64,000 nucleotides of DNA. Source: an uncultured delta proteobacterium (GTDB taxonomy: Bacteria; Desulfobacterota; Binatia; UBA9968). This document shows, one piece after another, positions 2,390 to 55,404 of this stretch (position 1 is its first letter; every line of letters starts with the position of its first letter). The stretch is from positions 64,001 to 128,000 of the forward strand of contig CAWJBB010000062.1 in assembly GCA_963840855.1 (NCBI GenBank), read 5' to 3'. Both the position numbers and the translations under genes were made by a program. Under the pieces are notes generated by a model that worked only from the letters and a program-made list of their open reading frames with translations, did not search any database and was not told the origin of the DNA.

Positions 2390-3394
2390 ATGCGTGGACC
2401 ACTCTTTCTGAAACGCATTAGGATTTTGCTGCTGATTGTCTGCGCCGTGGCAGGGCTGCCAGCTCTGGCGCCGGCGGCAGAATTTCAGGGAAGAACTACC
2501 GGTTCCGCTACTAAGATCAGACTTGGCACCCCGGTGGCATCGCTGAGCTACCTGCCAATTCATGTGGCGCTCAAGAAAGGTTTCTTTGCGAAACGCGGCT
2601 TTGACGTGGAGGTCATTCAGATGGCCGCCGGCCTGGTGACCCCGGCACTTCTCAACCGGGCGATCGATTACACGACGATACCCAGTGGGCCCGCTACGGC
2701 CGGCGCTCGGGGACTGCCCCTGAAAGTGATTTGCTTTACTTCGGTGAAGCTCCAGCATGTTCTCATCGGCCGCCCGGAGATCATGACGGTGACCGATCTT
2801 GCCGGCAAACGGATCGGTGCCGGAAGCCTTGGGACTCTCCCTGCATACGAGGTGCGCGTGCTCATCGATCGCTACAAACTGGGATCCAACACGGTCATCG
2901 TTCCCTTGAACTCCACCAACGACAGGATGCTCGGCACGCAAAGGGGAACCATCGACGGCACCGTGGTGCCCGCACCGTTCGATCTGAAGGCTGAGGAAAT
3001 GGGATTGAGACGGCTCCTGCAAATGGGCTCGATACTGCCGATCCCCCAAGCCGGCCTGGCCACCACGGAAGAAAAAATTAAGACAGCACGCCAGGAAATC
3101 ATCGAACTCCTCAAGGCTACGGTCGAAGGGCTCGATTACACCTGGAACGAGCGCGAAGGGACGATCGATATCATTGCCAAATGGATGAACCTCAATGCAT
3201 CACAAGCCGGCAGAGCCTACGATTCCGTACGCGACACTTACTCAAAAAACGGCATCCCTTCCGAAGAGCAAACGAAGGCCTATATCGCGATGCTCGGCGC
3301 GACGGCCGGCCTCAAGGGAGACGTTGCCGCTAATTCGATCTTCGATTTTTCTCTTGCCGCGGAGGCGGCGAAAGAAATGACAGGGAAAAAGTAG
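2390..3394 (+). CDS. ABC transporter substrate-binding protein, NMT1/SsuA/TauA family
   Basis: Signal peptide followed by YLPIHVALKKGFFAKRGFDVEVI and DLAGKRIG motifs. Confidence 0.85.
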   Translation: MRGPLFLKRIRILLLIVCAVAGLPALAPAAEFQGRTTGSATKIRLGTPVASLSYLPIHVALKKGFFAKRGFDVEVIQMAAGLVTPALLNRAIDYTTIPSGPATAGARGLPLKVICFTSVKLQHVLIGRPEIMTVTDLAGKRIGAGSLGTLPAYEVRVLIDRYKLGSNTVIVPLNSTNDRMLGTQRGTIDGTVVPAPFDLKAEEMGLRRLLQMGSILPIPQAGLATTEEKIKTARQEIIELLKATVEGLDYTWNEREGTIDIIAKWMNLNASQAGRAYDSVRDTYSKNGIPSEEQTKAYIAMLGATAGLKGDVAANSIFDFSLAAEAAKEMTGKK

Positions 3395-50722: not shown

Positions 50723-51100
50723 ATGCGGATGATGTTGCCAACGATCAAAGAACGCCGGGTTGTGGACCGCCTGTTGTCGACCTTTTTCGCCGACTACAAG
50801 GCCCAGGATTTCAAAAGGGCGGTCTCCGCGCTCTGCCGCTTTTACCATTTGAAAAATCCCAAGGTCGAGTGGTTTGAATACATCGATTGGGGCAGGACCG
50901 CCGGTAAGACTTATGAAAACGGCCAGATCTATCTGGTTCACCCCGAAAACTGGAAAAAAGGGACGAAATACAATTCGGAGCGAAGCTGGGTCAACATGGT
51001 TTACCACGAAATGGGACATTATATTTTCTGGGCGGATGCGGAGACCAAGGCTGATATGTTCGCCTCCCGAATGGTGCGCGGCGTGAACGGGAACAAATAG
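50723..51100 (+). CDS. Small HExxH zinc metallopeptidase-like protein (ImmA/IrrE-like motifs)
   Basis: YHEMGH followed by AETKADMFA. Confidence 0.65.
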   Translation: MRMMLPTIKERRVVDRLLSTFFADYKAQDFKRAVSALCRFYHLKNPKVEWFEYIDWGRTAGKTYENGQIYLVHPENWKKGTKYNSERSWVNMVYHEMGHYIFWADAETKADMFASRMVRGVNGNK

Positions 51101-51160
51101 TCATTCAATTTCACCCAGGACCGGCCTAATAAATCTTTTTTCGCCTCTCTGACTGGGGCC

Positions 51161-51253
51161 GTGGAATACAAAGATCCGCTGAAACTGCCCAACGCGAATT
51201 TTCCCATGCGGCTGAAGCCTCGTTATCTCGACGGCGTTAACCGGTCTAGATAA
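51161..51253 (+). pseudogene. N-terminal remnant of type-1 isoleucyl-tRNA synthetase
   Basis: GTG-start 30-aa ORF MEYKDPLKLPNANFPMRLKPRYL..., compared with the IleRS1 start MDYKDTLNLP.T.FPMR. Confidence 0.7.
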
Positions 51254-51326
51254 TTGCATCACCTTGGAGTACTTATCTTAGGTCTGTAAAAAACTAGTGT
51301 GTCTTAGAGCATGAGCCTTGATGGTG

Positions 51327-54300
51327 ATGTCGTTTACGTTCAATAAAGTCAACAGCGAAGTCGATTTTCCCGCCCTCGAACGTTCGATCCTGGATTTTTG
51401 GCGGCGAGCGGATGCTTTCGAGCGTCTGCGAAAAAAAAATCAGGGTAAACCGCCATGGTCGTTCCTCGACGGCCCAATCACTGCAAACAATCCCATGGGT
51501 GTTCATCACGCCTGGGGCCGCACGTACAAGGACTTGTATAACCGTTACTTCGCCATGACCGGTCATGAGTTGCGCTATCAAAACGGTTTTGACTGCCAAG
51601 GCCTTTGGGTGGAAGTAGAAGTAGAAAAGGAGTTGGATCTCAAATCGAAGCAGGACATTGAAAATCTTGTGACCGGCGATCGCTTTGCGAGCATCGATCG
51701 CTTTGTCGCTCTCTGCAAAGAGCGGGTCGATAAGTTCGCTCGTATCCAGACGGATCAATCGATCCGGCTTGGTTACTGGATGGATTGGGATCGTGACGAT
51801 GATTGGCTCAAGCCACCCGACCTCAGAAGAAGCTACTTCACCATGTCCGAAGAGAACAACTACACGATCTGGAGCTTCCTAAAAAAATGCCACGATCGTG
51901 GCCTGGTTTATCGAGCCTACGATGCGATGCCCTGGTGCCCGCGATGCGCCGTGGGAATCAGCCAAATGGAGATGCACGAGGGCTACCAAAAAGTCCCGCA
52001 TCAAGCGGTATTTGTGCGCTTTCCACTGCGCGGCCAGCCTGGGGAAAATCTACTTGTTTGGACGACTACGCCTTGGACATTAACCAGCAATGTCGCCGTG
52101 GCGGTCAATCCTGGTCTCACCTACTTAAAGGTCCGTCATCGGGGCGAAATTTACTTTCTGGCGAAAAATACTTTCTCCGCTCAACGGCTGGACGAGGAGT
52201 TCCGAAAAAAGGAGTGGATCGAAGGGGTTCCCAAGCTGAAGTCGATTGAACAGATTTTCAAAGAAAAGGGGGGCTACGAGGTACTTGGCGAGCTTGCCGG
52301 GAGCGAGATGCTCGGGTGGACTTATGATGGGCCCTTTGATGAGTTCGAAGCGCAAAATTATCCTGGGGGGTACCCTGCACAGATTGCGGATGTGGCGATC
52401 AAGCAACAGTGGGGACCGTCAAAGCCCGCTCGAGAAATTCATCGCGTGATTTCATGGGACGCGGTCAGCGAGGCCGAAGGCACCGGCATCGTGCACATCG
52501 CACCGGGATGCGGCAAGGAAGATTTTGCTCTCGGCAAAGAGGAAAGTCTCGTGCCGATTGCGCCACTGGATGAGGCCGGCATTTTCCTCGATGGTTTTGG
52601 CGAATTGAACGGTCGTTCGGCCGTAGATCCAGCCACCGTGGATTGGATCCTATCCAACCTCCAGCAAAAGGGACGGCTGGTCGCGGTGGAGCGTTATCCG
52701 CACAATTATCCGCACTGTTGGCGCTGCAAGACGGAGCTTCTTTTCAGACTCGTCGATGAGTGGTTTATCGATATGCGATGGCGTGACGCCATTATAAGGA
52801 TTTGTCATGACGCCCGTTGGATACCAGAATTCGGTCTGCACCGAGAACTGGACTGGCTCAAGAACATGGGCGATTGGATGATCTCTAAAAAACGTTACTG
52901 GGGGCTTGCGCTCCCCATTTGGGTCTGTGAGAGTTGCGGCGCTTTCGATATCGTGGGCAGTCGGGATGAGCTCAAAAACCGGGCTATAGGCGGCTGGGAA
53001 CGGTTCGAGGGACATACGCCGCACAGACCTTGGATTGACTTGGTAAAGATCCGTTGTGCCAAGTGTGGCGGTTCGTCGAGTCGGATTCCTGATGTCGGCA
53101 ATCCTTGGCTTGACGCCGGTATCGTCCCCTATTCCACTCTGGGCTACAACCGGGACCGGACCTATTGGGAAAAGTGGTTCCCGGCCGATTTCATTACCGA
53201 GTGTTTTCCAGGTCAATTTCGAAACTGGTTCTATGCACTCCTGGCGATGAGTGCCCTGATGGAGAACCGAGCCCCTTTCAAGGTTCTTTTGGGGCATGCG
53301 CTGGTGCGCGACGAAAAAGGCGACGACATGCACAAGTCCAAGGGAAACGCCATTCCCTTCGAGGACGCGGCGGAAAAAATGGGGGCGGACGTGATGCGCT
53401 GGATGTTTTGCCGCAACAATCCCGCCAACAACATTAATTTTGGTTACCGCCCGGCAGACGACGTCAGAAACCGCTTCGTACTGAAGCTTTGGAATACCTA
53501 CGCGTTCTTTTGCAACTACGCCCGATTGGATGGCTTTGACCCAAAGTCACCCGCCGTTCCCGTTCAGCAACGGCCGGACATCGACCGCTGGATCCTATCC
53601 GACTTGCAGCTGTTGATCCAAAGCGCCCGGCGCGAATACGAAGACTTCAACGTGATGGGATTTTGTCTCCTCGCCGAAGATTTCGTCGCCGAGAAGCTAA
53701 GCAACTGGTACGTGCGTCGGAACCGCCGGCGTTTTTGGAAAAGCGAGCAAAATGATGATAAATCTGCCGCTTATCAAACTCTTTACACCGTCCTCACGAC
53801 GCTGATCAGGCTGTCTGCGCCGGTCATGCCGTTCCTGACCGAAGTCATGTACCAGAACCTGGAGGGGAGCGAGACAGAACCGGTGGACCGTCCGGTAAGC
53901 ATTCATCTTTGTGACTTTCCACAGGCCGATCCCTCCCTCATCGACACGGAACTTTCCGCCGATATGGAGGCGTTGCTTAAACTGGTGTCCCTCGGTTCTG
54001 CTGTCAGGAACAGCGTTAAAATCAAGGTTCGCCAACCGCTGGCGGAAATAAGGATCCAACCAGCCACCGATGCGGAACGTCATGCCGTCTTGCGATTTAG
54101 CGAGCAGATCGCCGAAGAACTCAACGTAAAAAAAGTGAGCCTGCATGATGCCGCGCAGGGTCCGCTTTTGCGTTATGAGATTAAACCGAACCTCAAGTCG
54201 CTCGGTCCAAAGCTCGGCCAGCGAGTAAAAGAAGTCCAAAGCGCTTTAGCGGCTCTGGATCCCGTTGTCAGTGACAGAGAAAATCCAGACCGACGGCCGC

Positions 54301-54714
54301 CTGGAAGTGTCCTACTCCGGCGGGACTGTGGTCTTGGAAAGCAATGACATTTTGACAAGTACGAAAGCGCCCGACGGCTGGGCAGGACTGGCCGATCACG
54401 GCACGCAGATCATCGTCGACGTACGCGTCACTCAGCAACTCGCTTTCGAAGGGACTGCCCGGGAGATTGTCCGACACATCCAGGACTTGAGAAAACAAGC
54501 CGGCCTTGAAATGGAGGACCGCATCCGCTTACATTTAAAGACGGAATCTGCCACGGTGCGAGAAGCAATCGCGGCTCATGAACACTACATCCGCGGGGAG
54601 ACTCTAGCCATAGAGATCGCCAGGCAGCCGGTCGATGGTGATGCTCACAAAGCGGAAATCAATCTCCAAGGTGACACGTTGACCATAGAACTCGCCAAAG
54701 CCGCCCGGGTCTAA
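51327..54714 (+). CDS. ileS: Isoleucine--tRNA ligase type 2 (GVHH signature), frameshift near 54270
   Basis: DGPITANNPMGVHH, WTTTPWTL, GTGIVHIAPG.G, YPHCWRC, DMHKSKGN. Type-2 C-terminus EGTAREIVRHIQDLRKQAGLEMEDRI. Confidence 0.95.
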
Positions 54715-54748
54715 TCCTCGAAATTGACGACTCAGTGGTTCGTTAAAT

Positions 54749-54910
54749 ATGGACATGCTTCAAGCTGATCTACCTATGGACTTTTTCGAAAGTCAGATTA
54801 CGGAAGTCGAAGAATGTCCCGGAAACGGCGTCTTAGCTGTTCAGCAGGCCGTTCACTTCAATGTCCGTTGCTGCTGCGCGGCGGTACTCGCTTCGGGAGC
54901 CGCAGCTTGA
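54749..54910 (+). pseudogene. Probable degenerate C-terminal remnant of type-1 IleRS
   Basis: 53-aa ORF with ADLPMDFFESQI (cf. DL..LFIVSQV) and AVQQAVHFNVRCCCAAV (cf. VG....HP.LC.RC..AV). Its TGA overlaps the lspA TTG. Confidence 0.5.
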
Positions 54911-55404
54911 GCGCCAAGGCCAAACTGACTCTGACGTGGATTGCGTTCATCGTCGCCGCGGACCAGGTGACCAAGTTGTGCGTGGACCGATGGTTGCCGC
55001 TCCATCATTCCATCCCGGTGATCGATGGTCTATTTAGCCTGACTTATATCCGCAACACCGGCGCTGCGTTCGGCATCTTCGCCGGCAGCGCCGCCGCCTT
55101 TCGCCTGCCCTTCCTGATTATTTTTTCGCTGGTCGCCATCGGCTTCGTGGTGACGATGCTCAGGCGCTTGCCGGATAATCAAACCGGGCTGATCACCGCG
55201 CTGGCGTTTATCATCGGCGGCGCCGTCGGGAATTTGATAGACCGAATCGCCTACGGTGAAGTCATCGACTTTCTCGATTTTTACTGGCGAAGCTACCACT
55301 GGCCGGCGTTCAATCTCGCCGACAGTTTTATCACCGTCGGTGTCCTGATCACCGTCTTTTATCTGATCAAAGCCAAAGGCGAAGACCCCTTCGCCGCGCG
55401 TTAA
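54907..55404 (+). CDS. lspA: Lipoprotein signal peptidase
   Basis: DQVTK, NTGAAFG, GGAVGNLIDR, V.DF, WPAFNLAD. Confidence 0.95.
   Translation: MSAKAKLTLTWIAFIVAADQVTKLCVDRWLPLHHSIPVIDGLFSLTYIRNTGAAFGIFAGSAAAFRLPFLIIFSLVAIGFVVTMLRRLPDNQTGLITALAFIIGGAVGNLIDRIAYGEVIDFLDFYWRSYHWPAFNLADSFITVGVLITVFYLIKAKGEDPFAAR

Follow-up and report, generated by a model that had tools for sequence, protein, structure and literature searches.

Probable in situ replacement of a type-1 ileS by a foreign type-2 ileS in a family of Candidatus Binatia

In a 64,000-nucleotide (nt) window of DNA (G000:C62:64001-128000; "the window" below means this whole stretch), a type-2 isoleucyl-tRNA synthetase gene (ileS2, encoding IleRS2) stands between the decayed ends of a type-1 gene (ileS1, encoding IleRS1). 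The window comes from a metagenome-assembled genome (MAG) of Candidatus Binatia (7.1 Mb, 94% complete, 8% contamination), and all genomes compared in this work were MAGs. Very probably, a foreign ileS2 took over the interior of the resident gene by xenologous displacement in situ and then spread between genera of the family. Most relatives carry ileS1 at the same locus, the ileS2 is of foreign phylogenetic origin, and the genome of the window has no second ileS copy.

Remnants of ileS1 on both sides of ileS2

The ileS2 gene occupies 51327-54714 on the forward strand, on which all features described here lie, and its start at 51327 agrees with that in the related genome G002. Its TIGR00392 match (690.4 bits; cut-off 621.4) and its DUF5915 C-terminus bear out the type-2 assignment made in the initial annotation. 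It is the sole ileS of this 94%-complete genome, in which the remaining matches were valS-like and leuS-like. Two short open reading frames (ORFs) flank the gene: an N-stub upstream (51161-51253; GTG start, 30 amino acids) and a C-stub downstream (54749-54910; ATG start, 53 amino acids). Both ORFs, and the overlap of the C-stub TGA (54908-54910) with the TTG of lspA (54907-54909), were present exactly as initially annotated.

The N-stub had been proposed to be the N-terminus of IleRS1, and this identification was upheld. We built a 40-column hidden Markov model (HMM) of the N-terminus from the IleRS1 of 23 relatives and searched it against 2571 six-frame fragments of the window. The N-stub was the single significant match (E = 7.7e-5, model positions 2-17), the next having E = 2.6. 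By tblastn, its residues 1-17 aligned to the first ileS1 codons in all 31 ileS1 loci, with 47-59% identity. An IleRS1-type N-terminus, of the MDYK-TLNLP-T-FPMR kind, thus follows directly after the upstream gene for an HExxH protein, as expected of a type-1 remnant. Column-by-column alignment with live ileS1 starts placed the fossil at codons 1 to ~28 (51161-51244), recognizable over 51161-51211 and scrambled beyond. End-specific models were adopted because the full-length IleRS1 HMM, run against the six-frame window, is ill-suited to short remnants (E = 0.11 for the N-stub and 18 for the C-stub). Neither stub had a match in NCBIfam or Pfam.

For the C-stub, the proposed identity with the IleRS1 C-terminus was supported for the end of the ORF and not shown for its front. 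A DNA HMM of the last 50 ileS1 codons (nhmmer) found its best match in the window at 54849-54910, reaching the last base of the model, with E = 0.047. In an end-anchored, ungapped comparison with eight ileS1 tails, the last 60 nt of the C-stub were 56% identical (null 25.7 ± 4.4%), and none of 18,183 control windows was as good. The middle 60 nt were at chance level (z = 0.7) and the first 42 nt were marginal (z = 1.9; 660 of the 18,183 controls as good), so that the reading of ADLPMDFFESQI as the LFIVSQV motif of IleRS1 found no support. The protein HMM of the C-terminus did not single out the C-stub, which came third in its list with E = 0.96.

The 3' fossil therefore comprises the last ~20 codons of ileS1 (54851-54910), which resemble the ileS1 tail and whose stop overlaps the lspA start. 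It includes a degenerate second CxxC and the lspA ribosome-binding site GGGAG (54895-54899). The second CxxC reads VRCCC in G000, the genome of the window, and is intact in G002 (VCSPC); the first CxxC is not recognizable. Between ileS2 and this fossil lies a spacer (54715-54850) that holds the front of the 53-amino-acid ORF and shows no significant likeness to the ileS1 tail; it may derive from the tail of the imported segment, from wholly decayed ileS1, or from both.

Synteny agreed with replacement in place. We searched 41 genomes, 35 of which gave an ileS match that was typed by bits per position and N-terminal sequence. In 31 of the 35, ileS1 lies between the same HExxH gene and lspA; the other four (G000, G002, G005 and G016) carry ileS2 there, with the same two flanking genes. 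A low ileS1 score in G019 was an artifact of a contig end cutting its gene. The HExxH gene (50723-51100 in the window) was found as a full tblastn match 5' of ileS at 28 ileS1 loci and 8 distinct ileS2 loci, at 69-93% amino acid identity, and always directly upstream of ileS, both in the Binatia family of the window and in a sister family. On the other side, most family loci have a TTGA (or ATGA) in which the end of ileS1 and the start of lspA overlap.

The G002 locus aligns with the window in the same order throughout 5.7 kb, at 85.5% identity, and has the same remnants. Its 5' remnant retains KATLILAKTNFP and its tail VCSPC, and G000 retains EYKDPLKLPNANFPMR. As the two sisters keep different ancestral residues, the pattern is that expected of two independent decays from one ancestor. 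Four unpublished genomes entered the counts of relatives and family members (G015, G009, G046 and G067; the first two also supplied 2 of the 23 rows of the HMMs built from relatives). They are in none of the trees, and no conclusion depends on them.

Origin of ileS2 and its distribution in the family

A scan of GTDB species genomes yielded 10 further loci with window-type ileS2 (81-92% protein identity), all in the same family. The other 70 retained ileS2 loci, with a best-segment identity of 57-75%, were mostly from Planctomycetota (Gemmatales). The IleRS2 tree had 81 rows, and the 11 sequences from Binatia formed one clade in it with full support (100 in the Shimodaira-Hasegawa-like approximate likelihood ratio test, SH-aLRT). 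This clade nests within a 15-row clade (support 98) that also holds three Planctomycetota rows and one Bryobacterales (Acidobacteriota) row. The IleRS phylogeny thus sided with the synteny in favor of the initial proposal of an ileS1 whose interior had given way to a foreign ileS2. The Binatia ileS2 appears to be of Planctomycetota type, and its transfer would have run from Planctomycetota to Binatia.

The nine Binatia ileS2 loci with upstream sequence share one left junction. In each of them, the ileS1 remains (codons 1 to ~28) run directly into TCTAGATAA(T), with the joint at codon 28-29, and a second conserved box follows 12-15 nt past TCTAGATAA. In the window these two elements form the left end of the imported cassette (51245-51276; TCTAGATAA at 51245-51253, the second box at ~51266-51276), and the TAA that ends the N-stub ORF falls inside the first. 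An exact search for this 9-mer found it in 0 of the 70 non-Binatia, Planctomycetota-type ileS2 loci and at no ileS1 junction or start; by this test, the left end of the cassette cannot be traced to donors. The two elements may together constitute the promoter of the cassette. A simple promoter scan gave no site at the conserved box; its three sites (2.6 expected) all lay elsewhere. Rfam had no match in 50900-55100 at E ≤ 1, so this interval contains no known leader or riboswitch.

The common junction bears on whether different genera each acquired ileS2 at this site through separate insertions. Such a history would suit the locus in G042, where the N-stub shows the codon choices of its own genus as far as the junction. 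We nevertheless regard it as highly improbable, since the 9-mer and the second box are identical in 9/9 loci and neither lies upstream of ileS2 in the 70 non-Binatia loci, and all Binatia IleRS2 sequences belong to one clade.

The distribution of ileS2 within the family is patchy. We classed the ileS matches of 90 family genomes. ileS2 is present in at least 11 genomes, which belong to 8 of 23 genera; about 64 have ileS1-type matches (56 full-length and 8 partial), and none has both. Both types occur in five genera (coded g1, g11, g17, g19 and g21). Two further loci were irregular. An ambiguous partial match in G090 (G090:C118:36-1301; model positions 2-369, one TAG inside) is nearer to type 2 in bits per position and is perhaps a twelfth holder. 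In G013 (L034 3651-4125), the ileS1 HMM match ends at position 744 of 861, and the C-terminal part, without the first CxxC, lies in a separate 42-codon frame, reflecting either a broken gene or an assembly error.

We then set the ileS2 holders against the descent of their genomes. The valS tree recovers the genus codes, and a single clade of the nine ileS2 holders that have a valS row was rejected on valS by the approximately unbiased (AU) test (p-AU 7.5e-69). The tree of the HExxH gene likewise tracks genera and not ileS type. In it, holders sit with their own genus or with their nearest ileS1 neighbor (support 100 for g1, 92 for G042 with G014, 96 for G049 with G017, and 99 for G016 with G007).

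Between the genera g2, g26 and g17, identity levels differed from gene to gene. DNA identity was 86-88.5% for ileS2, compared with 73-74% for valS, 76-80% for the HExxH gene and 72-77% for lspA. The excess of ileS2 over valS identity amounted to 13-15 points between these genera and just 2-6 points within genera. A crossover was also visible. When G058 (g17) was compared with G005 (g2) in successive 75-nt windows of the HExxH gene, identity was 79, 67, 79 and 80% at first. The last window then reached 93%, and the spacer behind it 91%. Against its genus-mate G020, the same last window was only 75% and the spacer 43% identical. The crossover in G058 thus lies ~80 nt upstream of the stop codon of the HExxH gene. 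On the lspA side, the resemblance to the g2 locus dies away inside the first ~100 nt of that gene, although the signal there is noisy.

These comparisons speak to a simpler history, in which one ancient replacement was followed by purely vertical descent and the patchiness arose from MAG binning or from genus codes that do not match the true history. The single junction would fit it. So would the shortness of several ileS contigs (3.4-6.2 kb: 6.2 kb in G042, 4.1 kb in G080, 3.4 kb in G089 and 4.4 kb in G004), and the AU test on valS did not reject a clade of g2, g26 and two g17 holders alone (p-AU 0.186). However, the HExxH gene on the very same contigs groups the holders by genus or with the nearest ileS1 neighbor, the G058 locus lies on a 111-kb contig, and vertical descent accommodates neither the rejected clade of all holders nor the identity excess and the crossover. 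We therefore consider purely vertical descent improbable. Because valS alone does not reject the smaller clade, it is the identity gap, together with the crossover and the genus codes, that carries the case for lateral spread in this group.

Decay of the remnants and the retained lspA signal

The stubs are decaying pseudogene scraps rather than genes. Stops and indels interrupt the N-stub in G002, G049 and others, and hardly a trace of it can be made out in G005, G045, G056, G058 and G016. The 3' remnant measures ~160 nt in G000 and G002, ~50 nt in others, and only ~25 nt in G080 and G089. We read the frame that ends at the lspA start in eight ileS2 loci. In seven of them its open length ranged from 7 to 60 codons, with 45 codons in G002 and, in G045, 7 codons and no start codon. 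In G089 (L047 ~3306-3345), the ileS2 frame itself continues through the remnant ileS1 tail to a TGA overlapping the lspA TTG, so that the old stop/start overlap has been taken over.

The substitutions told the same story. Over the last 45 codons of the C-stub, G000 and G002 share 63% nt identity, compared with ~91% for the flanking genes. The codon changes comprised 31 nonsynonymous and 3 synonymous ones, and the differences fell evenly on the three codon positions (16/19/15), so this check gave no sign of a kept coding function; in the adjacent HExxH gene they were distributed 8/0/26. Moreover, a contig of a close strain from run X1, ~98% identical to the window on both sides, has 51113-51285, including the N-stub, swapped for 68 other letters. 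Read cover at 90% likeness also left bins 51134-51267 and 54752-54885 uncovered in some runs, which by itself is no evidence; only the bridging X1 contig was used.

Only the last ~20 nt are conserved across nearly all loci, namely a GGAG-type ribosome-binding site (degenerate in G016) and the lspA start/stop overlap (ATGA in G002). These nucleotides are kept because lspA has its ribosome-binding site and its start codon in them. The retained part is thus the lspA signal, not the open stub.

The initial annotation had suggested that the stubs stay open because they preserve native expression signals and translational coupling to lspA, a suggestion that was mostly not borne out beyond these ~20 nt. 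A wider form of it would have the stubs kept as functional small ORFs, the N-stub serving as a leader peptide or as native start signals for ileS2 and the C-stub as an upstream ORF coupling into lspA. Both stubs are indeed open in G000, and G002 has an open frame of 45 codons leading up to lspA. The GGAG-type site and the overlap persist in nearly all loci, and the N-stub of G042 is intact, with 6 synonymous versus 4 nonsynonymous differences from the ileS1 of a genus-mate. Set against the broken or barely recognizable N-stubs, the 7-codon frame of G045, the unbiased C-stub changes and the loss of the N-stub stretch from a close strain, these features leave such a function quite improbable.

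The displacement we favor would have proceeded as follows. In an ancestor within one Candidatus Binatia family, a segment with a Planctomycetota-type ileS2 would have replaced the body of ileS1, from about codon 29 to within its last ~20-50 codons. The left and right ends of ileS1 would have remained between the native HExxH gene and lspA and then decayed by substitution and deletion, save for the last ~20 nt. The ileS2 would have become the only IleRS gene, as it is in G000, and the whole segment would later have moved between genera of the family via homologous recombination in the conserved flanks.

Beyond the short contigs and the valS test described above, several points weigh against this account. 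As the IleRS2 tree was rooted at the midpoint only, the direction from Planctomycetota to Binatia depends on ileS1 being the common state in Binatia. With all genomes being MAGs and several ileS contigs short, mis-binning could inflate the patchiness. From the sequence, ileS1 may have been exchanged in one step or through an interim two-copy period, and mupirocin resistance of the Binatia ileS2 is a prediction from its motif. The G042 N-stub (L115 2326-2412) is intact and near-consensus over 29 codons (E = 6.7e-21), differing at 12 of 87 nt from the live ileS1 of its genus-mate. The G042 ileS2, however, differs by ~20% from the nearest cassette, and simple neutral decay would not leave an intact stub beside it; selection, recombinational refresh or recent arrival could each account for the stub. 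The G042 ileS2 itself was recovered in two tblastn pieces, suggesting a frameshift near 2824 (L115).

A bolder version of displacement with later spread is possible, and we put it forward tentatively. The ileS2 segment could act as a homology-armed resistance cassette that has repeatedly crossed genera in soil Binatia, replacing ileS1 in one step each time and being selected by natural IleRS inhibitors such as mupirocin. The G042 stub would then mark a recent sweep with a crossover inside the stub.

Enzyme type, neighboring genes and known displacements

The class I signature of ileS2 reads GVHH (51450-51461) and aligns to HVGH of the Thermus IleRS (PDB 1ILE), with the first and third residues of HXGH swapped. 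GVHH was present in 77 of the 81 rows of Binatia and Planctomycetota-type sequences, including all 10 Binatia rows covering the site; the ileS1 of relatives has HLGH or HIGH at the signature. The nearest solved enzymes were 1ILE (E = 5e-171) and 8C8W (5e-164), with 1FFY at only 2e-75; we take the first two to be type 2 and 1FFY to be type 1. According to the available text of Brkic et al. 2023 (PMC10485003), a G/AXHH signature in IleRS2 increases the mupirocin inhibition constant (Ki) by a factor of up to ~1000, and IleRS1 does not tolerate this signature; millimolar Ki values are documented there for other enzymes of the G/AXHH subclass. The Binatia ileS2 therefore belongs to a GVHH class that has been linked in print to very high mupirocin resistance, and this enzyme may itself be resistant, judging from its signature.

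One extra base at ~54265-54267 splits ileS2 in the window into two ORFs, 51318-54347 and 54265-54714. The DUF5915 match (PF19302) is divided accordingly, with model positions 2-53 closing frame A and positions 57-194 lying in frame B; there is no CxxC tail and no zinc finger. The extra base was missing from G002, G058 and G016, as well as from the contigs of all four soil runs covering the site, and the frame downstream of it is 85% identical to the G002 protein. The likeliest cause is an error of assembly or a mutation private to this genome.

Both neighbors are native flanks of the ileS locus. Downstream, lspA (signal peptidase II; 54907-55404) scored 120.2 bits against TIGR00077 (cut-off 73.95) and 142.6 bits against PF01252. 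The TTG at 54907 fits as its start because the lspA HMM match begins at residue 35 of the long ORF. The upstream HExxH protein (125 amino acids) matched no Pfam or NCBIfam family at cut-off and gave weak SprT-like and Matrixin matches (E ~0.06-0.09).

The replacement described here resembles what is reportedly called 'gene displacement in situ', a term of Omelchenko et al. 2003. As far as the available part of Koonin and Wolf 2008 (PMC2588523) goes, displacement of an essential gene likely needs two events, a gain and then a loss. The Binatia case is like the xenologous displacement described there in that a foreign orthologue stands in the place of the resident gene with its neighbors unchanged. 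It departs from that scheme in that ileS2 lies inside the old gene's own ends, so that the gain and the loss took place at one locus, perhaps through a single recombination. A further difference is that both joints are still readable here, and the decay is traceable across 11 genomes.

Horizontal transfer of ileS2 and its connection with mupirocin resistance have been described by Cvetesic et al. 2016 (PMC4861432), Zanki et al. 2022 (preprint) and Brkic et al. 2023 (PMC10485003), and in the accessible portions of these works resistance is proposed as a driver of transfer. The transfers reported there, as far as those portions show, similarly involve a type-2 IleRS with G/AXHH standing alone as the housekeeping enzyme. 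In Bacilli, by the same partial record, ileS2 is an added second copy, whereas in Binatia it replaces ileS1 at its own locus. The portions consulted of PMC4861432, Zanki et al. 2022 and PMC10485003 make no mention of lspA, synteny, displacement or Planctomycetota-to-Binatia transfer. In a limited search of the IleRS and mupirocin literature, the ten best-matching of 387 papers did not mention Binatia or Binatota.

The mosaic penicillin-binding-protein genes of streptococci, in which resistance alleles of essential genes spread by homologous recombination, offer another comparison. In both systems, a resistant-type allele of an essential target moves between related lineages via crossovers in conserved flanks. 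Unlike the streptococcal mosaics, however, the incoming Binatia allele is a non-homologous-type enzyme from another phylum, so that crossovers must lie outside it, and the exchange crosses genus boundaries at ~73-80% flank identity.

The Binatia locus is an unusually legible example of a known process. Displacement of essential genes is usually inferred from trees only, and the avoidance of a lethal gap has been argued rather than seen. Here, the surviving joints reveal that the foreign gene landed inside the frame of the old one, which signals had to stay (the lspA start region), and how fast the rest decayed across eleven genomes. The locus also indicates that a resistant-type essential target passes between genera by recombination in conserved neighbors. 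If natural IleRS inhibitors drive this spread, wild soil would offer a counterpart to the way mupirocin resistance spreads in the clinic.

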